Source of the DNA: a virus
Taxonomy: Duplodnaviria; Caudoviricetes
Length of the DNA stretch: 57,401 nucleotides
IMG/VR virus record: IMGVR_UViG_3300011013_003468
Span: 1-57,401 of that record
Strand: one strand, 5' to 3'
Under the pieces are notes generated by a model. The model saw only the letters and a list, made by a program, of their open reading frames with translations, did no database searches and had not been told where the DNA came from. Below are positions 2-35,100 of this stretch, piece by piece (positions within the stretch are counted from its first letter, which is position 1; every line of letters begins with the position of its first letter). The translations under genes and the position numbers were made by a program.

Positions 2-1030
2 ATTTTTAAGGGTAGTATTACTACAGAATGCTATCCTGATTTTTACAGCTTCTCCGAAGCGGGTTTCGGAGGAGGTGATAACGGTTGGGCTGTAGGTATC
101 TATCAGCCACAACCTAATCCATTAGATGCCTGGGGTAGACCTATAGAAGTAGACAGAATAAATATAGGTCTACCCGAAGGTGCTATAGGTAGTATTATTA
201 CAGGAACACCTACCAAATTGGATAAGTTAAAATCTTATCCGAACGATTATGCCTTCTTAAGAAAGGCATTAAATAAAAAATATAAGTTCTTTAAGCTCAC
301 ACTCGATGAGCAGGAACAATATTTTAAATATATCGGGCAATATCTTATGATTGATAATGATGATATCAGGAATAGTCCTGGTATCGCTGTAAGTTATGGC
401 ATATTTTGCCATAATAATACAGATTGTGACGAATGGAACTCCCTTGTAAAATGGGCTGAATCCATTGAAAAAATTAGAAATGCAAAGAATAAAAAGAAAG
501 AATTTTTCTCTTTTAAAGAGGAAATGGAAAAAGAATATGATATAAATATCAATATTGTTCCTAATGAAAATGATTTTTATCATTTTTATTGGAATAATAT
601 TGATTTAGGCGATAACCCAAATCATATTAAATTATATTTCGAAGGTATTCAAGCTGCTCAAAAATATGAGCAGAAATACAAAGAATTAAGAAATGAAATG
701 CTGCAAGGAAAAACTCCTGTAGCTTATTACCATTCATTTGAGATAAACAATAGGAAGTCTGTTTGTCTTGAAAATGGGACTCTCAAAGTCCCCAAAAAAT
801 TTATAGGCAAAGCAATTGGAAAAAAAGGTGAAAATATAAAAGAATTCCAAAAATTTTGGAATTTAAAAATAAAATTACTTGAAACCTCTGAAAATGCAGG
901 TTCTTTTAATTGGCAATATTATTATATTTTCTTTGAAAAATATATAAGGAAGATAAATAAGGCTAATTCATACAAGCCTAAAAATCTTCCAAAAATAGTA
1001 TATAAAAATATGGAAAAATATATATTTTAA
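2..1030 (+). CDS. KH-domain-containing protein, 5' truncated by the window edge
   Basis: The frame of ORF 218..1030 is open back to position 2 (IFKGSITTECYPDF...), so the TTG at 218 is probably not the true start. The C-terminal LKVPKKFIGKAIGKKGENIKEFQKFWNLKIKL matches the KH domain GxxG signature. Confidence 0.7.
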   Translation: MFKGSITTECYPDFYSFSEAGFGGGDNGWAVGIYQPQPNPLDAWGRPIEVDRINIGLPEGAIGSIITGTPTKLDKLKSYPNDYAFLRKALNKKYKFFKLTLDEQEQYFKYIGQYLMIDNDDIRNSPGIAVSYGIFCHNNTDCDEWNSLVKWAESIEKIRNAKNKKKEFFSFKEEMEKEYDININIVPNENDFYHFYWNNIDLGDNPNHIKLYFEGIQAAQKYEQKYKELRNEMLQGKTPVAYYHSFEINNRKSVCLENGTLKVPKKFIGKAIGKKGENIKEFQKFWNLKIKLLETSENAGSFNWQYYYIFFEKYIRKINKANSYKPKNLPKIVYKNMEKYIF

Positions 1031-11536: not shown

Positions 11537-12490
11537 ATGAAATATTTAGATGAACCAAAGAAATTGATATTTGATAATCAAATATTATTATTTACATTAA
11601 TCTATCAAATACCAGAACCAAGAAAGAAATATCTTTCACCTTTTAGAATAGATAAAACACCAGGTTGTTATTTTTGGCTTGCTGACAATAATAAATTATT
11701 TTTCGTAGATTATGGAGATATCAAAATAAGAAGAGATATTATTAGTTTTACTAAAGATTTATATAAGTTTAATTATAATCAAGCAATAAATTATTTAATA
11801 TCTTTAATTAAAGATAAAAATAATTTAATTTTAAAAAATAAAATTACAAAATATAAATTTTTAAAAAAAACTAATAATAAAACTGATATAGAAATAAAAT
11901 CTAGATATTTCACAAAAAAAGATGTTGAATATTGGAAACAATATTCAATATCTTTATATGATTTAATAGATAATCATAAAAATTATAAAATTATTCCAAT
12001 TGAACATTATAAAATTAATAATAAAATAAAGATCATTCCAGATAATATTTCTTATGCTTATATTTTTGATAATAAAAAAAAAATTTATACACCATATAGC
12101 GAAAATAGGAAATGGATATCAAGTGTGACTAAAGATTTAATTGGTAAAACAAATAAAAGATTTGATAATCTTGTAATTACAAAATCTGTTAAAGATGCAA
12201 TTTTATTAAATAAATTAAATTATGATTATCTTATTTTTCAATCAGAATCATCTTTTCCTAATAAAAAAATTATTAAAAAAAATATTCAAAAATATAAAAA
12301 CATTTATATAAATTTTGATAATGATCAAACAGGTCGTAGATATTCAATGATTCTTTATTATATATTAAAATATGAATTTGGTATAAATGCAAAACAAATA
12401 TTTACAAAAAAAGAAAAAGACAATTCTGATTTTACCAAAAAATACGGTTTAAATTCTTTAAACAATATTTATAAATCAATTATTTATTAA
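11537..12490 (+). CDS. DNA primase (Toprim, crAss-like type)
   Basis: SPFRIDKTPGC degenerate Zn-binding domain; VITKSVKDA and INFDNDQTG Toprim motifs; KDNSDF. Confidence 0.85.
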   Translation: MKYLDEPKKLIFDNQILLFTLIYQIPEPRKKYLSPFRIDKTPGCYFWLADNNKLFFVDYGDIKIRRDIISFTKDLYKFNYNQAINYLISLIKDKNNLILKNKITKYKFLKKTNNKTDIEIKSRYFTKKDVEYWKQYSISLYDLIDNHKNYKIIPIEHYKINNKIKIIPDNISYAYIFDNKKKIYTPYSENRKWISSVTKDLIGKTNKRFDNLVITKSVKDAILLNKLNYDYLIFQSESSFPNKKIIKKNIQKYKNIYINFDNDQTGRRYSMILYYILKYEFGINAKQIFTKKEKDNSDFTKKYGLNSLNNIYKSIIY

Positions 12491-12512: not shown

Positions 12513-12737
12513 ATGAGAAAAATACAAGTTTATTTAAATTCATTAGATGAAATTGAATTTGAAGATAATACCACATGGGGTGAATTAAAAAAATATTTAG
12601 TTTATAATAAAAATTATCCATCAGCTGTAAAAGCATTAGATGATAATAGTAATATTTATTCTAATGATGCTGATAAATTACCTGATGGTAATTTGAGTTT
12701 AACATTAATTATTGAAAAAACTAATTATGGTATATAA
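12513..12737 (+). CDS. ubiquitin-like (beta-grasp) protein
   Basis: 74 aa; strand-strand-TTWGELKKYL helix ... D-x-x-LPDG-terminal strand; ends TNYG-I; first gene of an E2/JAB/E1 cluster. Confidence 0.72.
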   Translation: MRKIQVYLNSLDEIEFEDNTTWGELKKYLVYNKNYPSAVKALDDNSNIYSNDADKLPDGNLSLTLIIEKTNYGI

Positions 12738-12761
12738 TTAAATTTTAAATAAAATAATAAG

Positions 12762-12796
12762 AAAGAAGTAAATTTATAATTTACTTCTTTTTTTTT
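12762..12796 (+). terminator. intrinsic terminator/attenuator between Ubl and E2 genes
   Basis: AAAGAAGTAAATT-TAT-AATTTACTTCTTT followed by TTTTTT. Confidence 0.7.
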
Positions 12797-12807
12797 AAAA
12801 TAAAGTT

Positions 12808-13881
12808 ATGAAAACATTAAAAAAAATATTAATAGATAATATAGAAAAAGAATTAAATTTAATTAAAATAGAATACGAAATAAAAGAAAAAGAAAATGGT
12901 AATATAAATGTATTATTATATTATCCTGAAGTAAATTTAAATTTAAATTTAACAAAAAATGATAAAATAATTAAAAATGTTTATAAAATTATTGATTTAT
13001 TTATTTTAATTGAATTTAATTTAAAAAATCCTAACATTTTTATTTCAGGTACAAGAACTACATTTAAAAAAAAAGAATTAGCAGTAGGATTTATTCATCC
13101 ACATCTTCCAAAATTTAGTAATTTAAATACTTATAATTCTTCTAATTCTCCTAATAATTTAAATTATTTTTGCTTAGGTAATAGTGATTTAAGAGATGAT
13201 ATTTATAAATTAACTAAAATAATTACTTCATATTTTGAAGATGCATTAGTAAATACTTATTTAATTGAATTAAAATTTTTATTAAAAAAATTTTTTTATG
13301 ATGTAAATAGTTTAGCTCATACAGAATCTGTATCAGGTATTCCTTATATTAGTTATACACAAGTATTATCAAATAATTTGATATCTATAAATGATTTTTC
13401 ATTTGTATTAAATAAAAGTAATTCATTAAGTATACTTATTGAAGAAATATTAAATTATATTATTAATAATAATTTGATAGATAAAGTAATAATAAAAGAT
13501 GGTTTTATATATGATATAAAATTAAATTTAACTAAAAAAGATGTAGATAATATTTTAAATAAAGTAGATTTATCTATTTATAATACTATTTTATTAAATA
13601 ATATTATAGTTTTTAATATCGATGAGGATTATGATAATACTTATATTTATAATGGAAGAGATAATTATAATTTAAGTATAATAACAAAAAATTTAAAAAA
13701 TGGACTATATTATATAAATTTTAAAGATAAAATATATGAGTTTAAAATTATAGAAGATGTAGATGAAAAAGAAAATCATTTGATAGAATATAATTTACAT
13801 CCAAAATTAAAACAAATAATTATAAATACAATAAATAACAATTTAAAAGAACAAATGTTAAAAAACCAATTAAAAAATTAA
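12808..13881 (+). CDS. prokaryotic E2-like ubiquitin-conjugating protein
   Basis: FIHPHL (H97) followed by YFCLG (C122, the only Cys seen); long C-terminal extension; operon context. Confidence 0.68.
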   Translation: MKTLKKILIDNIEKELNLIKIEYEIKEKENGNINVLLYYPEVNLNLNLTKNDKIIKNVYKIIDLFILIEFNLKNPNIFISGTRTTFKKKELAVGFIHPHLPKFSNLNTYNSSNSPNNLNYFCLGNSDLRDDIYKLTKIITSYFEDALVNTYLIELKFLLKKFFYDVNSLAHTESVSGIPYISYTQVLSNNLISINDFSFVLNKSNSLSILIEEILNYIINNNLIDKVIIKDGFIYDIKLNLTKKDVDNILNKVDLSIYNTILLNNIIVFNIDEDYDNTYIYNGRDNYNLSIITKNLKNGLYYINFKDKIYEFKIIEDVDEKENHLIEYNLHPKLKQIIINTINNNLKEQMLKNQLKN

Positions 13882-13885
13882 AATT

Positions 13886-14704
13886 ATGAAATGTATAATT
13901 AAAAAAGAAATTCACGATCAAATACAATATGTTTGTCAAAAACATCCAAAAATAGAATGGGCAGGCATATTTTTTTATAAAATTAATAAAGATAAAATTG
14001 AAATTTTAAAATTTATGCCTCAAATATATGGAAATTTTGGAAGTGTATCTACTAATGAAAAAATAGAATTAAAAACAGTTAAATTTAGAAATAAAAATTT
14101 TAAAAAAGAAGAATTAAAAAATATATATACAGGTAGAATACATTCACATAACAATATGAATGTATTTTTTAGTAATACTGATAAAGATCATTTAAATCAA
14201 TTAGTAAGTGTTAATCAACCAATATTTTCTATTGTTACTAATAATAATAGTGAATATCTTGGTTATTTAGCTTATTACGTAACACCATTTTATAATATTA
14301 AAAAATTAATTATTGAAGAAATAATTCCAGAAATAGAAAATAATATAAAGGTATCTGATGAATTTAAAAAATTGGTAGATGATATGGATATTAAAAAATC
14401 TAATAATTATAGTAAAATTAATTTTAATATAAAAACACCAGAATCAAAACGTTTTGAAAATTATGAATATTATAATTATTTTGATGATAATTTTAATCAT
14501 GAAGAATTTACTGATGAAGATGATATACTTATAGAATTATATGATGATTATATTGATTTTTTAAATGATCGATTTCAACAAATTGAAATTGATTATAATA
14601 ATTTTAAATATTTTCATACACCAAAAATTTTAAATGAATTTTTAAAAGAAAACAACAAATTAAAATTAAAAGATAAATTTTATAAACTTATAAATTCAAT
14701 ATAA
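13886..14704 (+). CDS. JAB/JAMM (MPN+) metallopeptidase, deubiquitinase-like
   Basis: E24 in IEWAG and H86-S-H88-x7-S96-x2-D99 (IHSHNNMNVFFSNTD). Confidence 0.9.
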   Translation: MKCIIKKEIHDQIQYVCQKHPKIEWAGIFFYKINKDKIEILKFMPQIYGNFGSVSTNEKIELKTVKFRNKNFKKEELKNIYTGRIHSHNNMNVFFSNTDKDHLNQLVSVNQPIFSIVTNNNSEYLGYLAYYVTPFYNIKKLIIEEIIPEIENNIKVSDEFKKLVDDMDIKKSNNYSKINFNIKTPESKRFENYEYYNYFDDNFNHEEFTDEDDILIELYDDYIDFLNDRFQQIEIDYNNFKYFHTPKILNEFLKENNKLKLKDKFYKLINSI

Positions 14705-15411
14705 TGAAAACAAAAGATAGATTTAAAGGATTTGATTGGATGAAACCCATATTAAATAATGAAGCACCAATAATAGAAATAATAGGTTGTGGTGGTATAG
14801 GTAGTAATCTTGCTTATTTATTAGGAAGAATTGGATATAAATTAGAAATATCTGATTTTGATATTGTTGAACCACATAATCTTGGTGGTCAATTTTTTGC
14901 TAATAATCAAATAAATATAAAAAAAGTAGATGCTATTAGAGGTGTTTTGAAAGCATTTACTTCTGATTCAGATTATAATAAATATAGAGATGAAAGAAAA
15001 AACAAAATATCAAGACGTTATACTGTAATGGCAGTTGATAATCAATCAACAAGAAATAATTTATTTAATCATTGGAAAGAGAGTTTACTTAATGATCCTG
15101 ATAATAAAGATAATACATTTCTTATAGATGCTTCTTTAACAGGTGAAACCTATCATTTATATTATTTAGATAAAAGAACATCTGAAGAATATATTCTTAA
15201 ATATAAAGAATATTTAGATAAAATTATAAAAAATGAAATTGGTTGTACAGTAAAACAAACAAGTCATATTGCAATGAGATTAGCTGCTGATATTACTGTT
15301 TTGATTAATAATTATTTTAGTAATAAAATTAATAAAAAAGATTTTAGAAAATTATATTTTCATAAATCTTTTAATGCAGTATTAAATAAAGACGAAATAG
15401 AATATTATTAA
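14704..15411 (+). CDS. E1/ThiF-family adenylyltransferase
   Basis: IIGCGGIGS, DFDIVEPHNLGGQ, KKVDA, AVDN, candidate catalytic C181 (IGCTVKQ); TAATG overlap with JAB. Confidence 0.92.
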   Translation: MKTKDRFKGFDWMKPILNNEAPIIEIIGCGGIGSNLAYLLGRIGYKLEISDFDIVEPHNLGGQFFANNQINIKKVDAIRGVLKAFTSDSDYNKYRDERKNKISRRYTVMAVDNQSTRNNLFNHWKESLLNDPDNKDNTFLIDASLTGETYHLYYLDKRTSEEYILKYKEYLDKIIKNEIGCTVKQTSHIAMRLAADITVLINNYFSNKINKKDFRKLYFHKSFNAVLNKDEIEYY

Positions 15412-15427
15412 TATAAAACAATTAATT

Positions 15428-15991
15428 ATGAAATTTAATGAAGAATACGTACATCACGATTTAGATTTTTTTTATTTTAATATTAAAATACCATTATTGT
15501 TTTTAAACAGAAATAATGAAGATAATTCTAATGATATTAATGATATTTTAAAAGAGAAAAATATTTATTATTTACCTAATTTTGAAAAAGAATTTGATAT
15601 TTTTACAAACCCTGATGAACTTGACGTAAATGATGTATTTGTTAATATTAACGAAGTTTATAAATTAAATTATCAAGGTATAACACATTATGCTTATAAA
15701 GGTTTATTTTTTAATGGTTTGTTTGATATTGAAAATACAATTTTTGCTTATATTATAACAGATAATTATCTTGATTATTTAATAATTGATAGACAATTTT
15801 ATAATAAACATAAGAGAGCTATGAATTTTTTATCATCAAAATTAGATTTACCAAGAAATCCATTATTATTAATTGATAATTTATCGAGTTTAATACAAAA
15901 AGTTAATTTAAAATCAACAGAACAGAATATTAATTATATTAAAGATAATCTTAAAATAACTGATGATAAAATAAATTATAATTTATTATGA
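15428..15991 (+). CDS. hypothetical protein downstream of E1
   Basis: 187-aa ORF starting 16 nt after E1; no motif recognised. Confidence 0.65.
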   Translation: MKFNEEYVHHDLDFFYFNIKIPLLFLNRNNEDNSNDINDILKEKNIYYLPNFEKEFDIFTNPDELDVNDVFVNINEVYKLNYQGITHYAYKGLFFNGLFDIENTIFAYIITDNYLDYLIIDRQFYNKHKRAMNFLSSKLDLPRNPLLLIDNLSSLIQKVNLKSTEQNINYIKDNLKITDDKINYNLL

Positions 15992-16551
15992 AAAATATTA
16001 AAAAGAAAAAAGTAATAAACAACAAAACATTTATGTTTTTAGTCCCAATTCTTCGATATTATGGAGATAATTTTATAAATTATATTAATAATATTGATAG
16101 AGTTGCATTTGGAATATCACAAAAAGGAATTGATTATAAAAATGATAGACCAATATTTATTTTAATAAATTCATCTTTTAATACAAAATTTTTTAATGAA
16201 TTTTTGCAATGGATTAGAACAAAATCTTTTTATATTACAGATTATATTTTTGGTAATGCTAATAATAGTGATTATCACATGATAGTCATTAAAACACCAG
16301 ATGTATTTAAAGACGCTTATGATAATTTTATTATTGGTAAATATTCTAAGATGTTTGATGAAAAAGATATAAATACTTATTTTAAATCAAATGTATCTAA
16401 AAAGATTTTAAAAAAATCTAAAGGTGAATATTTATTAGTAAAAGAAATAAAAGATGAATTTGATGTTGAAATAAATATTAAAGATGTTATTGAAAATCCT
16501 GATAAATATGAATTTTCTTTGCCACCATTAAAAAAAAACGAGGAATTTTAA
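15988..16551 (+). CDS. hypothetical phage protein
   Basis: 187-aa ORF with ATGA overlap; NKTFMFLVP and FIIGKYSKM look like a conserved phage family, but I cannot name it. Confidence 0.65.
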   Translation: MKNIKKKKVINNKTFMFLVPILRYYGDNFINYINNIDRVAFGISQKGIDYKNDRPIFILINSSFNTKFFNEFLQWIRTKSFYITDYIFGNANNSDYHMIVIKTPDVFKDAYDNFIIGKYSKMFDEKDINTYFKSNVSKKILKKSKGEYLLVKEIKDEFDVEINIKDVIENPDKYEFSLPPLKKNEEF

Positions 16552-19912: not shown

Positions 19913-22900
19913 TTATTTTTTCTTTTTTTCTTTTTTCTTTTTTTCTTTTTTTTCTTTAATTAATTTTCTATCCCAATAATCTTTTGAAGGTATTGTCCAA
20001 TCTTTTTTAGTATAATTTCCTAATCCTCCATAATTAACAAAAGCAGGAATAAATGCTCTATTAGTATCTCTTAATAAAGGATGTTTATTATTTTTTGTTT
20101 TATTTAATTCACCAAAAATACTTTTTTCTATATCTCCTAATAATTTAATTACATTTTGTAACCAAGTTACTAAACTTATTTGACTATAATTATTATAAAT
20201 ATCTTTTGGCTTTGCATATAATGTAGCATTACTAATAAGATTCATTATTTTATTTTCAAAAAATAAATATAATTTATGTTTATATTTACCTTCTTCATCG
20301 TCATCATCATCCGCACCTCTTAAACTAGATAACATTAATTTAAATGCAATCATTGCTAATAATATTGATATATCAGCAATATTAGCTTGTAAATTTTTAG
20401 TATCTAATTCATTTAATTTTAAAGATTTTAAATTAGCTTGCCCATATTTTGTTGCGATTCCAAATAAATGTAATGGTGTAAATAATGATTTTTTTAATAT
20501 ATTAAAACTAACAATAGCTAATTCTTTAATAAATCCTATTTCAGTATTAACATTATTAAAAGAAGCTATTGTTGCACCTAATGCTCCTGTAATTAATGAT
20601 GTAATAGGACCTCCTATAAGACCTATAGTTGCACCAAAAATTCCTCCACTAATTGGTGTAAATGATCTATATCTACCTTTTACTTTTTTATCTTTAGTGA
20701 AAATACTTTCTTGTTCAGTAGCAAATCTTTGCCATATTTGATTTGGTAGCCATGTTTTAAATAATGATACTGCTCTACCTGCAGGATTTGATTTTAGTAA
20801 CATACCACCCAAAGATTCATAATCACCATGAATACTTGCTATTGCTTGTAATACTTTATTTTTAAATGTATTATAATTATCTCCTTTAAAATTTTCCCAA
20901 TTATCTATATTTTCTTGACTTCTAAATTCTTCTTTTAATCTCAATGTATCATTTACTACTTCAAAAGCCGTAAATTTATTACCATCAAAAATAGGAACTT
21001 TTTCACCTGTTTTTGCATTAGTTATATAAGTATCTTGTAATATTGCTAATACATCAGCACCTTGATTTCTAAATTCTATTGAAGAAATTGATATATGATA
21101 TGGTGATAATTTATGTATATTTCTAAATCTTGATTTAACAGAATTTTTTTGTAATTCATTAGATGTATCTTGAAGAATTTTATAATCTTCTATAATATGT
21201 TTTAAAATATCCCATTGTTTAGCAAAATCACTATGCTTATTTATTCTTTTTCTAAATCCTTGACTAACAAATAATTCTGCATGACCCATATTACCTGGTG
21301 TCCAATATAATCCTGATGTATCTGCAATCATATTAGCAAATTTTCCTTCAATTCTATTTGTTATAGCTGAAGAAACATTATACGCTAAACCTTTAAATAT
21401 TATCAACGATAATATACCATCTACTATTGAACCTATAGATAATCTATCACCTACATTATTTATTATATTATTTATTTTTTCTATTTCATCAATTAATTCT
21501 TTTTGTTTTGCTTTATCAGTATTTGTATTTTCTAATTTTTTTAATTCTTTTAAATAATTATTTCTAATTCCTAAAAATTTTTTTACTTCTTTAAATTCTT
21601 CTTTTGATACTAAAGCACCTGTTTGTAAAAACATAAAAAATCTTTTAAATATTTTTTTATCATAATAAGGTTTTTTTGTTTTTAAACCTGTAAATATTTT
21701 TTCACTTATTTCTTTATTTTTTCCTTTAACTAACCTATTATAAGCAAATTCCATTCTTTTATTAGCTCTTACTCTTTCTTTATCAGTTCTATTTAATAAT
21801 TTTTCTATTAAATTCATAACACCTTTTATCTTCGTATTTTTTTCTATATTAGTATAATATTCTTTTAAAGTATTCATTATAGGTTCTGTTTCTAATCTTG
21901 CATTATATGTTGCTGCTGCTGTTAATGCTGTTCTAATAATTCTTGGTATATCTTGTGAACTTTCATTTGTTATTCTATTTAATGCTATTTTATACATTAA
22001 TTCTTTTACATCAATGTTTAATATACCTATATATTTTTTTAATAAATTAATATCGGGTTTTACATTAAATTGTTCTGCTAAAAATGTTAATTGTGAATTA
22101 GTTAGATTATGAATATTATTGATAATATCTTTACCATTTATTGATTTCCAATAAATTAATAATTTATCTATAGTTGTTTTTAATTCTGTTTGTTTCCTAT
22201 CATAAAATTTTTTATTTATACCTTTATTAACTATTTCATTATCATAAATAGTTTTTGAAATAACAAAATTTTTACTAAAACTATTTAAAAAATTCTTAAA
22301 TATTGATTTCTTTTTTGAAGATATTGTTCCTTTTTTATTAGAATCTAACATTATTTCAATAAATGTATTTTCTATTGCAGGTATAGAACTAGCAGGTAAA
22401 CTATGATATTGATCAGAAAATGTAATATTTATATATTTTAATGCATCTTCTAATGCTTCCCAATAGTTATATAAATCTTCATCTTCTAAAATATATTTAA
22501 AATCTTTATTATAATATCCAGTATCTTTTTCTATTTCTTTATTTGTATATGCATCTTTATATTTTATCTTTTGCTTAGGTAAAAATGTAGTATATCTTAT
22601 ATCTAATGTATATCCATTATCAGAAAGACCATGATTTTTTTCAAAATATTTAGCTACATAAAATGGATTAGATAATTCGTTTTTATATTTTAAATAATTT
22701 TTAATTTTTTCTTTATGCTCTTCATCATCTTTAATTCTTCCATCTATTAATTCTTCACTAACATTAGATTTAGCTCTAAATTCTTCAATATTTTCTATTA
22801 TTTCTTTTATTATTTTATTATATAATCTTGGATTAAGAATTTTTTTTAAATTTTCAGTATATTCTTTATCTTCTTCTAAAAATTCTTCAAATTCTGTTCC

Positions 22901-25900
22901 TTTATATTTTTCTACAATATCAGTTAATTTATTTATATCTATTATATTGGCATTCTTTAATAACCACCTATATTTTGGTTTAACATTTTTTTCTTTTATT
23001 ACTTTATTTTTAAAATCTTTAAACCATTTAGGGCTAAATATATTTATTAATTTACCTGTTTTTGTTCCATCTAAATTCTTTTCAAAAAATATATCATAAG
23101 ATGTTGCTGTAATTCCTAAACTTTTATATTCCTTTAATTTCTTTTCTACTTTTAATTGAACTGTATCTAATTTATTTAATACTTTAGCCATATCACCATT
23201 AGCTTCATCAATAGCCTTTCTCATTTCGCTTAACATTATTTGTGGAATAAGACTATCTTCTGAAAAAGTATTTGTAGATAAATTTTGCATCATCATATCC
23301 CAAATACTAATATCTGGTTTATTTTTTATTAATTTTTCTATTGTAAGTCCTTCAAAATTTTTTAATAATGGTGAAGTTGATAATATTTCATTGACTTTAT
23401 CAGCTAATATATTTTTAAGTTTATTTTCTATACCTATAAAATCATCTTTTATTTTATATAATAAATCTTTTATTTCTTTTAATGATTCATCTACTCCTAT
23501 CATTTTTAATAATTCTTTCGTAAATAATAAATTCTTATTATCTATCTCAAAATTTCCAATATTTTTATAAAAATTTATAATATTTTGTATTTCAATTTTA
23601 TTTTTAATTGGATCTTTCATTAAAATATTCTCAATTAAATATTTATGATCATTGATCATACTATTTAAAAATTTAATATAATCTACATTTTTCTTTTTTA
23701 ATAATTCATATATATTATTTAAATTTTCTATTATATGATATAATTTAGATATTTCTGTATCTAATTCTTTTATCTCTTTTGGATTACTATTTCTTTTTTT
23801 AATTCTTAATCTATTTATTCTTTGTTCTAATTCTTTTATATTAGTATTTAAAATATTTTTAAAATTATTTTTTAAATCAATTATATTTGAATTTAAAGAT
23901 AAAGGTAAAAGATCTTCTTCATCTAATGTATATAATGTAGGAACAAAATCATCACTAAAATTTCTTTCTATAATATCATTATTATTCATTACTTTTTTTA
24001 TATATTCTTTTGATGGCGCTATTACTATTTCGTTTGTATTATTATAAAAATCATAATAAACTATTCCAGAACCATAATCCATATTTATTTTAGATGCTAC
24101 CAATTCACCATTTATACCTTTTTTAATAATTAATGAATCATCTTCTATTCTATCTAAATTATTTCTATATCTATTAAAAATATCATTTATAATTAATTTT
24201 TTTATTCGTTCTTTTTCATTTTTATAAGATTTTTGATTTGGATATGGGATTGTTTCAGTAGGATAATCTAAATCAATTCTTAATAAAAATGCATCAGCTA
24301 AAGTTCTTCTTAATCTTTCTTTTGTTGCTTTTGCTAAATTATTAAAAGATTTTATAATCCAGTGAATAAATGTTTTCCACCATCTATTAGCTTCACCTTT
24401 TTGTAATATAACTTGATTTGTTACTTCTTCTACTAATTTTTCTTTACTTCCCCATTTTTCAATACCTTCTCTCACAATAGGTGTATCTTTAAACCATTCT
24501 AAATATTGATGTACATACTGATATGGTAAATAATATTCATCTTCTTTTTTATCAGAATTATCAACTATTGCAAATAATGCATTTAAATTATTTTTATTAT
24601 CAATATCAAATTTTATATTTTTTAAATTTATTTCTGGATATAATTCTTCTAAAATAGTAGTTATATTATTATTTATTTGTTCTTTAATATCTTCTGATTT
24701 TTGATAAAATATATTATCGTTAGATTCATTAGAACTTAAATCTATTTTTTTATTACTATTTAAAACAAATTTTGTTAATTCTTCTAATGTAGTATTAGGA
24801 TTGATATTTTTTGAATCTATTTCTGATAAATTAAATAATTGTTTTATATAATCTATTAAATTATTCCAAAACATTTTAATTTTATCAATCAAATTTTTAT
24901 CTTTTTGTTTATCTAATTTATTTTTAGCATATAAATCAATAGCTCTTGCTATATATTCATGATCTTTATTAGAAGTATAGTTTTTATCTACATAATCAAC
25001 TACTTGTTTATTACTTTTAGCTTCTTCTAATAAATTATTATATAATTCAGGATTAGTCTTTTCTATTTGTAATAAAAAAGGATGTGTGAATATCTCGTGT
25101 ATAGCACTTGTTTTATCAGCTTTTCCTTTTACTAAATAAGCTTTTTTAGTTTCGGAATTATAAAACCCTGATGGTATATCACTATTATTTTCTTGATAAA
25201 AATTTTGTCCTTCTAATTTTTTATTTATTTGATATTTATTTTTTAAATAATTAGATAACCATTCTAAAGCATCTTTTCGATTTGTAAATTCTAAATTAAT
25301 TTGAGCTTCCATAGCAGCTTTAACGATATTACCTAATTCCTTTCCAGTTTTAAATCCTAAAGCTAATAAATCTTTTCCTGTTATTAATGGTTTTATTTTT
25401 TTACTATCTCCAAATTCTTTTTTAAATTCTTTAAGTAATTCATTAAATTTTTTAATTGTTTCTGGTACAGGTGTATTTTTATTATTTCTGCCTAACATAT
25501 CTGCTTCCATTAATCTTACTAATTCTTCAATAGATGCACTTTCTAATCTTTTTGATAACTTTATAAAAGCAGATTTTTGTCCTTTTATATCTTGAATAGA
25601 TGTTATAGTAGCATGTGCTAAATGTTCTTTTATAATAGGAATGACTTTTTTTATTATAGAATTTCTTATTCCTAATTTTTTTAAAAATTTTTCACTAATT
25701 TCTGCACTTTTTGCTTCATGACCTCTTGATGTTATTACTTCTCTATTCTTTTTTGGTACAAATGTTTTTTTTGTAGTATCTATTTTTCCAATATCATGTA
25801 GTAATGCACTAAACATTAAAACTGCTTTTTCATCTGCATTTAAATTTTCTCTTTTAGCAATATTATTTGCAACATTCATTACCTGTTTAGTATGTTCTTC

Positions 25901-28900
25901 TACATCCCCTTCAGGATGATACTCAAAATCTTGTTCTATATCTTTAAGTTTTATTAATTTTGGGAAATATTTTTTACCAATACCTGTATCTCTTAAAAAA
26001 TCAAATATTAATTGAGGATTACTCCCTTTAATAGCCCATTTTAACCATTCTTGTTCTATTCTTTCTTTAGGTAATTCATCTATCATATTTTTTTCTACCA
26101 TATCACGGATTAAATTAGCTGTTTCTGATGCCAATTTATATCCCATTCTACTTTGAAATTGCATAGCTCTCAAAATTCTCAATGGGTCTTCTTTAAATTT
26201 ATCGCTAACATGCCTTATAATACCTTCTTTTAAATCTTTAATTCCCCCATAATAATCGTACAAAGTTTTGCTTATAGGATTATACCCTAAACTGTTCCAA
26301 GTAAAATCACGTCTTTCTGCTGCTTCTTTTATAGTGATATTTTTATCAAATTCTGTTTTGAATCCTGTATATCCTTTACCTGTTTTATTTTCTCTTCTTG
26401 GTATAGAAAAATCAAACGGCTCTTCTATATCTACTAATTCAGTAGTACCTTTTTTATAAGGTATAAACTTTAATATTCCAAAACTTTTTCCTACTTCATT
26501 TACTTTACCATATTTCTCTAATATAGATTGTAATTCTTCTAAGGATACATTGTATATTTCTATATCAATATCTTTAGGTTTTTTACCTAATAAAGCATCT
26601 CTTACAGCTCCTCCAACAATAAGAGAGTTCATATTCTTATTATTTAATTCTATAAGTACAGGATTAAGTAAATTTAATAATTTTTCATTTATTGGTATAT
26701 CTACTTTTTGTTTTTCTATATTTTTTAAATTTTCTAACTCTTTTATTATTTTTAATTTCTGTTCAAAAACATTTTTGCTTGAATTAAGAATTTCTTTAGC
26801 ATTTTCTTCACTAATTAATTCAACAGGAATATTAAACCTATTACTTAAATCACTAGCAAAATTTTCTAAAGTATTTTCTATTTCAGATTTAGTTACTTTT
26901 TGAAATGGAAATTCATCTACATCAAAAAGATTATTATTATTATTAATAGGTTTTACTTTACTCCTAATTAAAATTCTTGGATATTTACGCATTCCTTCTT
27001 TTAATGCTGCTATTTTGACATTAGCTTTTATTTTAGGATCATCTTCTTCATTTTCATTATTTATTACTTCTTCATAAATATCATTTATATCTTTTTTTAA
27101 ATTATTATAAGTTATAGTAGGTTTTTTTTCACCATTAACTTCCAAATCTTTTAATTTTTTTTCAATTACTTCAACTTGTTCTTTTAATTCTTTTATTAAT
27201 TCATTATTTTTATTACTATATTTTTTACCATAAGATAATAATTTTATTCTTTTTTTTAATTTAACCATTTTTTTTATTAAAGTATAACTATTATTATCAT
27301 TTTGCACTTTAATTTTAGGTTCAATTAATTTGCCATATCTTTTATCTAATATATCATTAATACCATCAATTAATTTTTTAGTAGAATAAGGTACATCATC
27401 ATCATATTCTATTCTAAAATTATTATAAGTAAGAGCTATAGCTAGTTCATTATGATCGTATGTTAATTTATTTATTATATTAGTTAAATTTGGTTGTACT
27501 GCATTTAATGATTTTGATTCAGGTGCTTTAGTATAACTAATCCCTGCTGTTTCTTTTTTTAAATATTTATCAAAGTAAGCATACGAATCCCAAACACTTC
27601 CGCTATGAACATCTCTGTTTGCAGCCCATTTAATATCTTCTGATTTAGGAAATATTTTAATTCTTATTTTATTACCAAAACCTTCGAGTTTAGTAATTCT
27701 TTTATTAATTGGTTTAGTAAGTGCTGATACAATAAATTCTATTTTTGCTTTTTTATTATCTTCAATATTATTTAATAAATTTTGAAGCATTAATTCTAAA
27801 TCAAAATTTGAATATCCTCCTACAATTGAATAAAATCCTTGCCCTCTACTATATATTTCTTCCGGATTATATATAATATTATTAGTTTTTAACCATTTTT
27901 TTATAATTTTTATAGATAAGTTAAAATCTTTGTTTATTTCTGCAAACTTTTCTAATTCATCATCTTTAAATATATCTTCATTTTCAATTTCAAATTTATC
28001 AACTGGTATTACACTATCATCATAATCATCTAGATTTATTTTTTTTAATTTAAATAATTTAGTAATATGATTATTTGCTTCTTGATAAGTTTTAAAAGTT
28101 TTATTATCAGGTGTAGTATATATTACTTCATAACCTGGTAATATTAGTTTAGAATTTCTATAAGCTAATAAATCAGCTAAATTACCTAAAGTCATATCTG
28201 GTCTTAATTCTTCTATTTTAACTTCTCTTTTAGAAAACAATGATTTCATATAATCAGTCATTTGTTCCCATAATTCTTTTAATAGAGAAATTAAATTTTT
28301 ATCTTTAACTTTATCTAATCTATCAGCAATATATTCACCTAATAATTGAACAATAGCTTCTTCTTGTTGCTCTTCTAAAGAATATTTTTTTTCTACAATT
28401 TTTACATTTGGAAAATTTTCAGAATTTTTTATGTATTGTTTAAATGTATAATAATCTCCAAATTCTATTTTTTTTTCATCTCTATATTTAAAAGATAGTT
28501 CTTTATATTTGTAGTATTTTTTAACTCTATCTAAAACTTCTTTACCTCTACCAGTTTCAAGTTCTTTAAGTAGGCTTTGATATAAAGATGTTTCTTCATT
28601 AAAGTTACTAATTGGTTCACTTTTAATATCTTCAAGCATCTGCTTATAAGATGCAGCATGTCTGTCAATAGTTTTATCAGAAACAGCAGCTCTATTTTCA
28701 CCTCTCTCTAGTTGTGCTTTAATTCTTTTTTTAGCTAATTCGGGATTTAATTCCATTAATTTATATTGAATATTAGCTGTAGGTATTTCTTTTTTAATAG
28801 CTCTTATGAATGGTAATCTCTTTTCTTTCGTTAAATTAGTAGTATCAAATACCACTTGTTTACCTTCTTTTAAAGCATTTATTGCTCTTTTAGCAGCTTC

Positions 28901-31900
28901 AGCATAAATTTCTTTATCTTTAGATTTATCATTTATATTACCTGTAAATTCTACTCTCATTGCATCAGGTTCTATAACTACTAAATTTTTTTGAGGTAAA
29001 GATTTGATAAATGTACTTTTACCACTTCTACTTGTTCCTATAGGTAATAATACATCAAACTTATATTGTCTATTCTTAATAGCTCTAATAATAGGATGTC
29101 CTAATATTTCGTGTATAGGAGTATCTAATGTTGCATGATTTAAATTTATTATTGCTGTATTATCTTTTAAATAACCTTTATAATTTTTATTATTATCTAA
29201 CCATTCTTCTGCATCTTCCTTTGAATTAGCATAATATATATCTTTATTTTTAGATTTTATTTCATTGTCTATTACAATCCATTGCCCATCTCTATATATT
29301 ATTTGTGGATTTTCAAATTCTATATCTAAACCAATTCTATAAGCCATTCTTTCAGCTAAATCTCTAATAGTTTTTTCAGAAGCTACATAATCTTCATCTG
29401 ATTGGTTAGTATTGTTTTGGTAATAAATATTATCATCTGAATTTTTCTTTACATTATTATAAGCTTCCTTTAAAGCTCTCATAAATCCTCCATTAGGACC
29501 TTCCCAAAATTTATCTCCAAATCCTTCATGTGTTGATTTATTTAAATATTCTAAACCTCCTCTTTCATCTATACCTTTTATTAATTCAGGATGCTGCTCA
29601 AATTTTAATTCGAGAATACGAACTATTATGTTAAAAGATTTAGATATATCTGCTTTAAATCTTCCTCTTGGTTTAAATACTCCTTTATTTCCTTGTCTAT
29701 AAGCAAGATCATCAAATTTACCTGATTTAAAAGTTTGATAAGCGTGTTCTGAATTTTTAAATATATATGTTTTTCCTGATTTTGTTTTTATTTTAATTTG
29801 CAAATTATTTCCAGGATTAGTTAATTTTCTAGCAAATTTAGAGCCTTTACTTGTTATATTTTCTCCTTTTATATTTTGTTTATTTTTATTTTCATTATTA
29901 TTTAAAATTAAAGGACTTAAATCTGCATCATTTATTTTATCTTCAAAAACATTATTATCTAAATTTATTAATCCTATATTTTCTTTTTTTAGATTTAATT
30001 TGTCTTCTTCTGCTAAATATAATTCTAATTTCTTTTCATTTATATTTTCTTTTTTTAAATTTTCTATATTAGATTTAAATTTATATATATTAGTTTTAAT
30101 TCTAACTTTTGATTTAGCTCTTGTTATAGCTGTATATATCCATCTATTTTTATTCCATTTATCAGATATCCAATCAGCATCTATATATACATTATTCCAC
30201 TCATTACCTTGAGATTTATGTGCTGTTATACTATATCCATAAGTAGCTATATTAACTTTTTTATCCCAAATATTTTCTTTACCATTATAAAAAGAAAATG
30301 GCTGTTGATGAAAAAATTCATTTGTTAATAATTGAGATCCATGTAATGATGGAATAGGTAATTCAGGAAATAATAAGGTATAAGTGCTAACTTCTTTATT
30401 ATTTAATATTGTATCATGATATATCAATATTCCTTTTAATTTTATATTTCTTGGATTAAATTCAGTACCAACATTTATTTCTTCTTCAAATTTTTTTATT
30501 ATTTCTGGATTTTTTACAGTATATATGTCACTGTTCATAAATGCATTGTTTGAAACAGAAATTAATTTTTCATTATTGTTAATAGCATTATTAGCTTTAT
30601 CACCATATTTAACTTCTCTTATTTTTCTATTATAAAAAAGTCTATTTTTATTTGTTGATACTATTACAACATATTCTTTATTATTTTTAAAATCATCAAC
30701 TAACTCTTGTCCAAAATTACTTACTTTTTTAAATTCATCAGAATTAGGATTATATATATTATCATTATTTGTTCTTAAATCTGTAGCTGATAATAATATA
30801 TCACCGTCTTGTCTTTTTACTTCTTGTAATTCATATTTATTTTCTTTTTTAAATATTTCTTTATTCCATTTAAATAATTCTGGATTTTTGCCTACAGGTT
30901 CTAATTGGAAACCATCACCCAAAAATATTATTTTATTATTACCTAATTTAGCTTCTTTTATTAAATCATTTAATATTTTTTCATCTATCATAGAAGCTTC
31001 ATCAATAATATATACTTCATCATTACCTAATCCTTTATTAATCCATTCACCTGTTTCTGGATCTGGTGAACCATATAAAACTTTATGTATTGTAGAAAAA
31101 TTATTATCATCTTTATCAGCATTGAATTTTTCTTTTAATCTTTTAACAGCTGCATTTGTTGGTGCTAATAACATTCCTTTTGAATAATTAGCTATATTTT
31201 CTGCAATAGTTGTTTTACCTGTTCCTGCAAAACCCGCTAATAAAAAGAAATTATCATTGGAATTTAAAAAATTTTCTATTTTTAATAAAGCATTCTTTTG
31301 ATCATTAGTATATATAATTTTATTTTTTCTCATACCTAAAATAGAACCTGATATATTTCTATTTAATTTATTTAATATTTTTTCTCTTTGACTTCCACTT
31401 TTATATACTTCTCGACCTTTTGATGTTTTATTTAAAGAAATAATTCTATTATCGTTTAAAATAAAATATTTACTATTGTTATATTCTATAATTCTATTTT
31501 CATCATATTGCTGCTTAATAAGAACTTTATTTTTAATTGTTTCATCGGTAACTTCTTTACCATTTTTATAAACCATTTTACTATCAGGCATTATTATTAT
31601 TTCATATTGGTCTATTTTAAATGTATTAGAAATAGATTTTTTAGTTTCTGATTTTTCAGATTGCTTTGATATTTCTGTTTTTTCTAAATTATTGTTTAAA
31701 TATTCTATTGCTTTATCATAAGAATCTATAAATTTATTACTATTAATAGCTTTAAATAATAATATCGGTTTTTTAAAATTTTTAGAAGCATATTTTAATA
31801 TTTTATTAATTATATTTTTTTTTAAAAAATCTTTTGATAATTCTGTTAATTGATTATTTATATTATTAATATTATCATTATAATTTATCTTTTCATCATC

Positions 31901-32158: not shown

Positions 32159-35100
32159 TTAACAATTTTCATGTTCATTATCTAATATATTTTTTAATAT
32201 AGATAATTTTTTATTTATTTCTTCTTCTTCTTTATCTTTTTCTTTTTTTATATTCTTATTCATATTTTCTTCAATTTTATTTTCTTCAATTTTATTTTTT
32301 TCAACTTTATCTTCTTTTATTTCTTTTTCCTTTATATTTGATTCGGTTTTCTTATTATCTATTAAATTTTCAGGATAATATTCATTATATACAAAATTCA
32401 TAATTCTTATTGCTGCTTCTTCAGCTAATGAACCTTTTTTAAATATTCCTAATTTATTTAAAAAGTTTCTAATTGCATTAACAAATTTACTAATAATATT
32501 TTTCCCTTTATATTTTTTAGAATTTAATAATTGTATAAAATTTTTATTAGTGAACATACCTGTTATAAATTCTCTAACATTATATAAAGGATAAAATGCT
32601 TCTTCTTCAGGTGTTAAACTGACTTCTAAATTAGATAAATTATTAATACCTTGAATATGCATCTTATCTAATTTATTTTTCATAGAGATATAATAGGGAT
32701 TAGTACTAAATAATTTTAATGCTTCTATATATATATTTCCTAATTCTTTAACATGATCTGGTGCATTAGGATCTAATATTAATCTTCCATTTGATTTTAT
32801 AAAATATTTTTTTAATTCATCACTTGTTATACTATGAATATATTCATGAAGTAAATTTATTAATAATTTACTTGGTGTATTCGATTCATTTGGATTTAAT
32901 ATAATAGTACCATTTTTATAAGTACCTTTTGCGTTTAAAGAACTATCAAATTTAATATGTATTGTTGATTTATTAAATTTAATAAATTCTGTTATCAAAT
33001 CTTTAAATCTTTTATTATTATCATTTAATATTGATAATATATATCCTAACAATTCTTGTAATTGATCATTATCAATATAACTTTTAATTTTTTGTAATTT
33101 ATCTTCTTTTGTAGTATTACTAATAGATGCTTCTTTTGATTTTTCTATTTCTTTTTCAATATCTATTGCTAATAAACTATTTTTATTAAAAATTTTAATA
33201 TGACCTCTTTTAATCGTAGGTATTTCTATATATTTATTATTTATTAATTTATATAATTTATATCTTTTATTTTTATCATCTGTTTTTTGGTATTTGGCTA
33301 TAAATTCAGGAACTAAATCTGGATTTTCAATAGCTTGTTGTTCTAATTCTTTAATTTTATTATCATCTTTAACTTTATATGCGTATTCAGGATAATTTTG
33401 AAATAATTGTGTTATATAATTTGTTATATTTGTAGATAAATTAATAAAATCATTATAATTAAATAATTCTTTAGTAGCACCTATATTTTTAAAATAACTA
33501 AAAGGAATATATTTTGTAAATTCAACAGGACCAGTTTGTGGATTAGTTAATAAATTATAATTTATTAAATCTTGTGCATAATCTCTACTTGTATAAAAAC
33601 TTTCTATTTTATAATAATATTGTGGTTCAGTATATCCTGTATATCCCAATTCATTTAATTCTTCTACACTAAGTTTCCCATAATTAATTACTTTATAACT
33701 TTTACCATTTAATTTAAATTTTCCTCTTTCATTAATTTTTAAATCTAATTTATTTTCTTTACTTAATATTACATTAGCATTTGAAGAAATAATAGGTTCA
33801 AAAATTTTAGAATCTAATTCTTTATAATTAGCAGTATCATAATTATAATCTGGCAATTCTATATTTGAAGCTATTAACTCATCTATTGCAGAATATAAAG
33901 CATCTTCATATAGTAAAGATCCATTTGTGTTTACAAATTCTATTGTTGAATATTGACCACTCTTTTTAGCAATTTTAAAATCTAATCTTTTTAATAATTC
34001 ATTAGAAAATATCGGATGATTTCTATTTTTTAATAATTCTGAATATAATGCTAAAGATATATTATTTTTGGTATCTAATAACAATCTATTTCTTTCATTT
34101 TCTATAGTACCAGAATAAAAAGGTAAAATATCATCAGTTAATAAAAAATTTTTAATATTCGCCCAAAATATTTTACTATATTCTTTTTTCTTGTATTTAT
34201 TAGTTGCATTTGATGATGCTAAAAATTTATTTAATTCATTGTGTAATAAGAAATTAAATTCAGGATAATAAGAACTATAAAATTTTATAGTTGTAGACAA
34301 TCCTTGTAGTACCATATTAGATAAATAATTACTAGGTTTTATAAGAGTATTATATATTTCTATAAAACCCATATCTAAATACTTATTCTTATCAACAGTT
34401 GATGTAATTGGTATTACTTCACCTAATAAAACATTAGGATTTTCAAACAATCCGTTTGGAGATATTAAATATTCTAAATTATTAACAAGATCTTTTATTT
34501 CTGTAAAATCACCTGCCAAACGCTTAGATATATCCAAAGCTGTTACTGTATTTAATAATACATCATTATATTGACTCAAATTAAGAAATGTTTTTAATAT
34601 TATAGCTTGAAATTCTTTATTAGGATTAGTTAAATTATTTATTAAATCTTCTACATTTATAATTTTATCAGTATTTATATTATCAAAATTTTCTATGTTG
34701 TATTTTTTTAATATTTTTTCTAATAATTTACTTTCAGCATTGGCTTCATAATCTGAACTAGCAGCTTTTAAATTTTCTATCTCTTTAACATATTCTTTAA
34801 TAATAGGTTGTGATAAAAAATAATATGATAAATAAATATTACCTTGTGAACTTTTTGCTTGATCAAAGCCTGCTAATGTTAATAATTCATCTACATTTAC
34901 TGTATGTTTATTTAAATTAACTTTACCTAATACATTAGCTTTCATATTATCTACCGCTGTTTGTACTCTTTCTTCTATTACTTCTGTTATATTTCTATTA
35001 CCATCTAAAGTTTTTATTTTTCCTAATTTACCATCAAAACTTATAATGTTACCTTCAATATCTTTAAATTTTGGAAATATACTTGGATCTGATACTTTTA

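Follow-up and report, generated by a model that had tools for sequence, protein, structure and literature searches.

In this study, we identified four consecutive genes of a crAss-like phage that probably form one module for the conjugation of a ubiquitin-like protein (Ubl), a reading to which we assign a probability of roughly 60%. The genes lie in the IMG/VR virus record IMGVR_UViG_3300011013_003468 (57,401 bases, G+C content ~20%, completeness estimate 63%), the whole of which is referred to here as the window. They encode a 74-residue Ubl candidate, a 357-residue protein resembling E2 (ubiquitin-conjugating) enzymes, a 272-residue JAB/JAMM (MPN+) metallopeptidase, and a 235-residue adenylyltransferase of the E1 (ubiquitin-activating) type (Table 1). 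An earlier note, made from the sequence alone, had described four co-oriented genes right past the primase gene and interpreted them as a Ubl-E2-JAB-E1 operon. The list of open reading frames (ORFs) confirms this arrangement: four consecutive plus-strand ORFs begin 23 bases past the primase stop codon, and the JAB stop and the E1 start share one base (TAATG); the note had called these two genes translationally coupled. All of the residues it had singled out, namely Cys122 and the HPH motif of the E2-like protein, the JAMM residues of the JAB protein, and the GxGGxG loop and Cys181 of the E1-like protein, are where it had placed them. Its interpretation as a Ubl conjugation system is supported by the analyses described below.

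The 235-residue protein is confirmed at the sequence level as an E1-like adenylyltransferase. Its match to the Pfam ThiF model (7.1e-12, 45.4 bits against a cut-off of 28.1) passes the threshold of the E1-like superfamily (PF00899), and in PHROG it belongs with phrog_15670 (1.8e-27), a family of unknown function. The nucleotide-binding type loop G28-C-G30-G-I-G33 and Cys181 are both present. Across 65 distinct homologues, G28, G30, D51, D53, N59, K74, D112, R117, and C181 are invariant (65/65), and G33 is invariant or nearly so; Cys181 is a candidate thioester cysteine. A family profile built from 17 homologues matched the sequences of UBA5 (1.7e-18), MoeB (4.4e-15), MccB (2.2e-13), TcdA (2.6e-12), and PaaA (7.5e-10) in the PDB, with further matches to Uba1, ThiF, Uba4, Cap2, SUMO E1, NEDD8 E1, and BubCD. 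These alignments span the Rossmann half only and end at profile position 120, so short of Cys181. The protein also matches 22 PADLOC models of the "E1-E2" (Cap2) type, which span only about residues 24-95. Among NCBIfam models, the best match is the ThiF model PRK08644 (2.6e-17, 63.1 bits against a cut-off of 159), and the scores for TIGR02354 (36.8 bits against 152.2) and MoeB (23.9 against 266) are lower still. Pfam scans of 29 neighbouring ORFs, in which small ORFs were only partly covered, found no sulfur-transfer or cofactor gene (rhodanese, cysteine desulfurase, or PP-loop). An assignment as a ThiF or MoeB sulfur-carrier equivalog was rejected on both counts, all NCBIfam scores being far under their cut-offs. 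The earlier note had stated that no such genes lie nearby, which holds for the 29 scanned ORFs and only in part for the small ones.

The identity of the 272-residue protein as a JAB/JAMM (MPN+) metallopeptidase is likewise confirmed by its profile matches and motif. The PADLOC JAB model PDLC00890 matches at 4.7e-9 across residues 2-131, and five more JAB models match as well. The Pfam Prok-JAB model scores 7.4e-4 (19.8 bits), under its cut-off of 25. The JAMM residues E24, H86, H88, S96, and D99 are all present, and H86, H88, S96, and D99 are invariant in 65/65 distinct homologues. The protein consists of a catalytic domain (residues ~1-130) followed by a C-terminal extension. The ThiF match above its cut-off, the PADLOC JAB match, and the motifs invariant in 65 homologues bear out the E1 and JAB identities given in the earlier note. 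These motifs exceed what chance would produce. The note had also ranked its Ubl and E2 assignments below these two, and library profiles indeed recognise only the E1 and JAB proteins.

The 357-residue protein has no family in Pfam, NCBIfam, PADLOC, or PHROG. A tblastn search against 50,697 GenBank phage records found nothing, and a word-indexed search recovered only the query itself. Searched exhaustively with HMMER, 1.84 billion representatives yielded 11 proteins at E<=1e-3, ten of which constitute alignment A1; a repetitive 1849-residue protein, in which seven stretches match residues 168-258 only, was left out. R83, H97, H99, C122, G124, and P179 are invariant among the ten members. The window protein has a single cysteine, C122, in an FCLG motif with H97-P-H99 upstream of it. 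The classical E2 motif is HPN-x7-C, which the motifs of more distant positional equivalents (HPH-x6-C-x-G or PNPH-x5-C-x-G) resemble.

An ESM Atlas model of the E2-like protein is poor (predicted local distance difference test, pLDDT, 0.45) and shows sub-threshold likeness to the Prok-E2_D and Prok-E2_B clusters. AlphaFold2 with a shallow alignment gave a model with a mean pLDDT of 57.7, in which the blocks covering most of residues 1-170 reach 61-87 and the loop at 101-120 only ~42-44. The model contains a helix (2-19), four strands (22-27, 33-50, 53-71, and 76-87), a short helix, a long loop, and two further helices (127-144 and 148-170). The long loop carries H97/H99 and C122, with C122 located just before helix 127-144. 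As modelled, the order of elements in residues 1-170 is that of the ubiquitin-conjugating (UBC) fold: N-terminal helix, four-strand meander, cysteine loop, and helices. In a structure search against ~48,000 PDB representatives, 34 of the top 50 rows were titled E2, UEV, RWD, Cap2, BubB, or UFC1, and in a second search all 50 top rows were E2, UEV, Cap2, or VPS37A entries; the Z scores were modest in both. The best Foldseek row was Rad6 at 0.098, with several more E2s within the top 50. Two results limit the E2 assignment: the family profile finds no PDB sequence even at an E value of 10 and connects to none of the known E2 families, and Foldseek returns nothing at E<=1e-3. The UBC fold that the earlier note had proposed is not refuted and is consistent with the model topology and with the E2, UEV, and RWD matches, while the modest Z scores and the Foldseek result fall short of establishing it. 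We consider the evidence for an E2 at this locus to be moderate. The C-terminal half (residues ~175-357, about 190 residues) has no assigned fold. Prediction of a complex of two E1 chains, Ubl residues 1-73, and E2-like residues 1-200 gave run scores of 0.01, 0.41, and 0.02, the mark being 0.32, and counts neither way.

The module is conserved well beyond the window. A search for related loci with the single E1 protein as the query found none, and the E1 alignment A2 retrieved 72 IMG/VR loci. JAB adjoins E1 in all 72, and a protein of at least 300 residues is encoded directly upstream of JAB in 58 of them. The usual order is large protein, JAB, and E1; in L062-L071, the pair is reversed, with E1 preceding JAB. 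The upstream proteins fall into two groups. Group A comprises nine distinct proteins together with those of cr106_1, FpV4, and the window; its members match the profile of the window E2-like protein and share the motif Y.HSHL...FC.G...ES..G.PY. Group B comprises 43 other distinct proteins of 343-564 residues with the motif P(N/H)PH-x5-C-x-G or HPH-x6-C-x-G, whose Cys and Gly are invariant across 37 aligned members. Neither hidden Markov model searches nor hhalign gave a significant match between the two groups, and only the PH motif was aligned; homology of groups A and B is therefore not supported by sequence. In the E1 tree, the window is placed within the group A clade on a long branch. The group B arrangement is present on 16 of 32 contigs from a species-genome collection, mostly metagenome-assembled genomes labelled Clostridia. 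About 30 group B loci in addition to L028 (7295-8440) encode a ~382-residue reverse transcriptase (Pfam RVT_1 1.3e-20) just downstream of E1, forming a cluster of 30 neighbours. This enzyme may be the reverse transcriptase of a diversity-generating retroelement and is not part of the Ubl module of the window.

Named phages also carry the module. With the cr126_1 protein as the query, the E1 family was found in 74 of the 50,697 GenBank phage records. These include 29 Bacteroides phage records (crAss001, the PhiCrAssBcn series, and DAC17) and 29 Flavobacterium psychrophilum phages of the FpV4 type, the remainder being uncultured crAss genomes and a few others. E1 homologues in Xanthomonas and Erwinia jumbo phages were found with another query. 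In these 228-kb genomes, the E1 homologue follows an 892-residue hypothetical protein near topoisomerase genes (L076, Xanthomonas phage PhiXhv-15, 2283-5657). The order in crAss001 is gp80 (primase), gp79 (Ubl and tail), gp78, gp77, and gp76, and the primase-then-Ubl order also occurs in cr106_1 and cr126_1. The crAss001 gp78 protein reads GYMHSH...PCTG...VESINGVPY. A synteny survey, as suggested in the earlier note, thus shows the gene set to be conserved in crAss-like and other phages. In crAss001, where the annotations of the set also include "hypothetical", gp77 is annotated as "metalloprotease domain" and gp76 as "thiamine biosynthesis protein, ThiF"; one GenBank record labels its E1 homologue "E1 enzyme family protein". 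The "thiamine biosynthesis protein" label of the phage homologues is probably a misnomer. A literature search, with supplements and subscription papers outside its scope, found no paper linking crAss-like phages with ThiF, JAB, MPN, or ubiquitin-like systems, and none of the terms ThiF, JAB, MPN, or ubiquitin-like occurs in the main text published by Yutin et al. in 2021 (PMC7886860). The available text of one report notes E1-like genes alone in Asgard archaeal viruses (10.1101/2021.07.29.454249). The module in cultured gut phages seems to be undescribed, although it may have been mentioned elsewhere.

The 74-residue protein has a predicted ubiquitin-like beta-grasp fold. Its confident ESM Atlas model (pLDDT 0.81) clearly resembles clusters with ubiquitin (PF00240), YukD, Sde2-Ubi, and ThiS/MoaD-like members, with template modelling (TM) scores of 0.71-0.77 by query in a comparison of predicted with predicted models. 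The beta-grasp assignment of the earlier note is not refuted by this check. No Pfam, NCBIfam, PADLOC, or PHROG family includes the protein, and a word-indexed homologue search recovered only the query itself. Alignment A3, made of positional homologues from related loci with 25-33% identity, gave only chance-level matches to PDB sequences (E>=0.17). Gly73 is invariant in this alignment (9/9). A few of the small ORFs in relatives have weak, sub-threshold Pfam matches to SAMP2, Ub-Mut7C, RnfH, and ThiS.

The length of sequence past the conserved Gly varies from a single residue, as in the window (Ile74), to about 215 residues in relatives. In the group A relatives, further residues follow the K(T)KSG(G) with which the Ubl domain terminates. 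A fusion of this kind is crAss001 gp79, in which 135 residues are appended to the Ubl and its KIKSG. In cr106_1, the Ubl (92 residues) and the tail (130 residues) are encoded by two genes, separated by an HNH endonuclease gene that is situated two codons past the conserved Gly (L001, 1734-2937, versus the undivided gp79 in the crAss001 locus L110, 1442-2119). The cr106_1 Ubl gene product is 82% identical to gp79 residues 1-90, with the alignment stopping at ...KIKSG, and the product of the 130-residue gene matches the gp79 tail at 6e-8. The split right past the Gly in cr106_1 and the fusion in gp79 thus mark the conserved Gly as a natural boundary between two units, as expected of a processing site, and the Gly would be exposed by cleavage of a Ubl precursor. 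The small beta-grasp-like ORFs of group B (75-82 residues) end in ...VKADNA or ...ADGA(R), and other small ORFs upstream of the large proteins end in ...VKQVKG-NL or -NM. The group A tails past the Gly start with LSY.EI(R/K), are strongly acidic over one stretch, and make up a separate family (nine loci by jackhmmer; e.g., L009 3064-3708 and L002 2577-3446). A separate 130-residue domain without a Pfam family was observed in 38 loci (e.g., L021 2786-3184), where it is encoded just before the group B Ubl or fused to its C-terminus. It is a candidate for a fifth component or a built-in substrate; the window has no counterpart.

Table 1 The module and adjoining features in the window.
Feature	Position	Strand	Basis
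DNA primase (Toprim)	11537..12490	+	PHROG phrog_12622 DNA primase 1.7e-25; Pfam Toprim_2 1.1e-4
Putative Ubl (beta-grasp) precursor, 74 aa, C-terminus ...TNYG73-I74	12513..12737	+	Predicted fold; invariant G73
A+T-rich hairpin then U run	12759..12796	+	RNA fold -16.1 kcal/mol
E2-like protein, 357 aa	12808..13881	+	UBC-like N-terminal domain ~1-170 (predicted); H97-P-H99; sole Cys122
JAB/JAMM (MPN+) metallopeptidase, 272 aa	13886..14704	+	PADLOC JAB match; intact JAMM residues
Minimal single-domain E1-like adenylyltransferase, 235 aa	14704..15411	+	Pfam ThiF; invariant Cys181

The module is situated in the plus-strand replication block of the window, flanked by the primase and dUTPase genes. 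According to Pfam and PHROG, this block also encodes a Helicase_C/ResIII-type helicase, a DnaB-like helicase, and an AAA ATPase. The crAss-like assignment of the window is based on a crassvirus muzzle protein (Pfam 2.1e-35) encoded on the minus strand, along with tail ring protein 1 (1.3e-48) and tail ring protein 2 (3.4e-25). The hairpin between the Ubl and E2-like genes has a z score of -3.83, and one of 200 shuffled sequences folds equally well; a consensus terminator scan did not call it. Judged from its sequence, it is a possible attenuator or terminator, and as an attenuator it could give more Ubl than enzymes. No match to PF14460 (Pfam) was found anywhere in the window. Two giant ORFs of 4071 residues (19913-32128) and 4211 residues (32159-44794) lie back to back on the minus strand, beside those for the muzzle and ring proteins; crAss-like genomes typically encode such very large proteins. 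A 187-residue protein encoded two genes past E1 (15988-16551) matches phrog_14962 (3.1e-27), and its relatives occur in 15 related loci, ~1.9 kb past the E1 gene. An ORF running off the start of the window (2-1030) contains a KH RNA-binding domain (Pfam KH_1 2.1e-7).

We compared the module with known systems, relying for Bil, Bub, and the lambda-type tail proteins on the available text of the cited papers. The module would function like the Type II BilABCD system, which consists of the same four parts as separate proteins (Ubl, E2, JAB, and E1) and has no E3 (ubiquitin ligase). In Type II BilA, up to nine residues past a conserved Gly are removed by the JAB protein BilC (Chambers et al., PMC10557695), and the phage Ubl likewise has a conserved Gly followed by few non-conserved residues. 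In both systems, the E2 has a catalytic or candidate cysteine with a nearby histidine, although the conserved His of BilB follows the Cys, whereas it precedes the Cys in the phage family (HPH...C). BilD is a large E1 with an inactive and an active adenylation domain and a separate Cys domain (PMC11601596), whereas the phage E1 is a single adenylation domain of 235 residues and so lacks the multi-domain architecture characteristic of Bil. Furthermore, the Ubl and E2-like proteins of the module have no sequence match to PADLOC models, and the module is carried by a crAss-like phage with virion and replication genes, whereas Bil is located in bacterial defence islands.

The Bub (6E) system shares other features with the module. 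The JAB-E1 of Bub cleaves BubAB, in which a Ubl is fused to an E2 (PMC11601596), and fusions of the Ubl with the protein that follows occur in the phage family, too, where the JAB of the system would release the Ubl. Both have an E1 that is a single adenylation unit, and BubCD and BubB are among the E1-profile and E2-like structural matches, respectively. However, Bub works through oxyester intermediates and its E1 is without a catalytic Cys (PMC11601596), in contrast to the invariant Cys in both the E1 and the E2-like protein of the phages. The JAB, E1, and E2-like genes are separate in the phage, whereas Bub has a JAB-E1 or E2-E1 fusion, and no match to DUF6527 (the serine protease BubE) was found among the Pfam-scanned neighbours. 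In type II of the cyclic-oligonucleotide-based antiphage signalling system (CBASS), Cap2 combines E2 and E1 in one protein and has a CD-NTase as its substrate, whereas the phage genes are separate and accompanied by a beta-grasp Ubl; the scanned neighbours included neither a CD-NTase nor an effector. The eukaryotic UFM1 system (UBA5-UFC1-UFM1) resembles the module in its type of E1. It differs in that orthology is not demonstrated, its protease is a Cys protease instead of a JAB metallopeptidase, and the phage E2-like protein bears the extra C-terminal half. The PRTRC cassette, a label used in the earlier note, was rejected: NCBIfam scores are far under the cut-offs for PRTRC_ThiF (26.3 bits versus 144.75) and PRTRC_A (12 versus 101.8), and the other parts have no match. 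Given the multi-domain BilD, the oxyester chemistry, fusions, and BubE of Bub, the Cap2 fusion and its CD-NTase, and these PRTRC scores, we place the module in none of Bil, Bub, CBASS, and PRTRC. Its new features are that it is phage-encoded and located in a replication block, and that it combines a minimal E1, an unrecognised E2-like family, and long-tailed Ubl precursors.

The sulfur-carrier clusters (ThiS-ThiF, MoaD-MoeB, QbsCDE, and CysO/Mec+) also have a minimal E1, a Gly-ended beta-grasp protein, and JAB trimming, the last being established for QbsD/QbsE and Mec+/CysO. They provide the main alternative explanation, to which we give a low probability. The Ubl would be a carrier of the ThiS/MoaD/TtuB/CysO type that is adenylated by the E1 and converted to a thiocarboxylate by a host sulfurtransferase; the JAB would trim the precursor or release the product like QbsD or Mec+, and the 357-residue Cys/His protein would modify a nucleotide, DNA, or tRNA with the sulfur. 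The position of the module among replication and nucleotide genes, from primase to dUTPase, suits a role in nucleotide modification. Like MoeB and ThiF, both of which are among its top PDB sequence matches, the E1 comprises one minimal domain. While its best NCBIfam matches are ThiF models, their scores remain far under the cut-offs (63 versus 159 bits), and the 29 scanned neighbouring ORFs include no gene for sulfur or cofactor metabolism. The ending of the Ubl can be read in either direction: it has the Gly of a sulfur carrier, and yet this is a single Gly (YG) in the window, while many relatives end in ...ADNA or ...ADGA, not GG. The E2-like protein also speaks against this explanation, since such pathways use no UBC-like partner with an invariant Cys, as modelled here for the phage protein.

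A Ubl with a C-terminal Gly adjoining a JAB protein is also known from phage tail genes, namely TAPI/TAPK of lambda and T1 (PMC1779556). These are tail genes without E1 or E2, whereas the module described here has both and lies in the replication block. By analogy with the proposal for lambda TAPI/TAPK, the beta-grasp domain could be a cleavable N-terminal pro-domain freed by JAB, in which case the E1 would activate a carboxylate other than that of the Ubl, in a peptide (as MccB and PaaA do) or on a tRNA base (TcdA), and the 357-residue protein would be a non-catalytic adaptor of the UEV/RWD type. The E1 profile does match MccB (2.2e-13), TcdA (2.6e-12), and PaaA (7.5e-10), the structural matches of the E2-like model include UEV and RWD domains, fusions of the Ubl to other domains are frequent in this family, and tail-assembly Ubl and JAB proteins have been described without E1/E2 chemistry (PMC1779556). 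An adaptor would, however, need no invariant Cys flanked by invariant His, and E1 Cys181 is conserved in all 65 homologues. With one removable residue past Gly73, the window Ubl is no pro-domain of another protein, and the Ubl, E2-like, JAB, and E1 genes are kept together across very divergent phages. We regard this explanation as unlikely.

It is equally improbable that the main job of the module is counter-defence or a decoy function, in which it would not tag targets of its own but undo or swamp a Ubl-type immune system of the host (such as Bil, CBASS Cap2, or a Bub-like system); JAB would then serve as a deconjugase, while the Ubl, E1, and E2 of the phage would compete with the host cascade. 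In favour of this, the best JAB matches are models of the PADLOC defence library, the E1 matches 22 "E1-E2" (Cap2-type) models there, and characterised bacterial Ubl cascades act against phages (available text of PMC10557695 and PMC11601596). On the other hand, a deconjugase alone would suffice for this, the retained Ubl, E1, and E2-like proteins with all their catalytic residues favour an active cascade, no host is assigned and hence no matching host system can be paired with the module, and the genes are placed within the replication block and apart from the usual early anti-defence genes.

For the proposed Ubl conjugation module, the identities of E1 and JAB, the conservation of their catalytic residues, and the conserved gene order are established, the beta-grasp and UBC-like folds come from models, and we infer all chemical steps of the cascade as well as its targets. 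The module would be expressed together with the replication genes. The beta-grasp protein would be made as a precursor, from which JAB would remove the residues past Gly73 (one Ile in the window). The minimal E1, which is probably homodimeric as MoeB and UBA5 are, would then use ATP to adenylate the carboxylate of Gly73, and the Ubl would be passed to E1 Cys181 as a thioester. From there it would be handed on to Cys122 of the UBC-like protein, in which HPH occupies the place of the classical HPN, and finally joined to lysines of phage or host proteins. Because no E3 is evident, the C-terminal half of the E2-like protein may select the targets. JAB may also reverse the tagging. Whether the module serves to tag host proteins or the phage replisome, or acts in counter-defence, is a matter of speculation.

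The relatives extend this proposal beyond the window. We see about an even chance that crAss-like phages of Bacteroidota (among them the cultured crAss001, the PhiCrAssBcn phages, DAC17, and the Flavobacterium FpV4 group) and many ~100-kb phages on Clostridia-labelled contigs run a minimal Ubl cascade of their own during infection. Its components would be a Ubl synthesised as a fusion or cleavable precursor, an E1 of 220-235 residues, a previously unrecognised E2 family with HPH/NPH...C, and a JAB peptidase. It would be the first complete Ubl conjugation system of bacterial viruses, tagging phage replication proteins or host proteins and mirroring the Bil, Bub, and CBASS systems of the hosts.

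Bacterial ubiquitin-type conjugation has so far been characterised as anti-phage immunity (Bil, Bub, and CBASS Cap2/Cap3). In the human gut, crAss-like phages rank among the most abundant groups of phages. Because the same genes occur in phages that are cultured with their hosts, namely crAss001 (gp76-gp79; host Bacteroides intestinalis) and DAC17 (host B. thetaiotaomicron), the proposed cascade is directly testable. If it is true, a widespread mis-annotation as "thiamine biosynthesis protein", "metalloprotease", or "hypothetical" would be corrected, and a minimal E1 and a new E2 family would be added to the picture of how these systems evolved. Furthermore, bacterial viruses too would use protein tagging, as eukaryotic viruses exploit ubiquitin.

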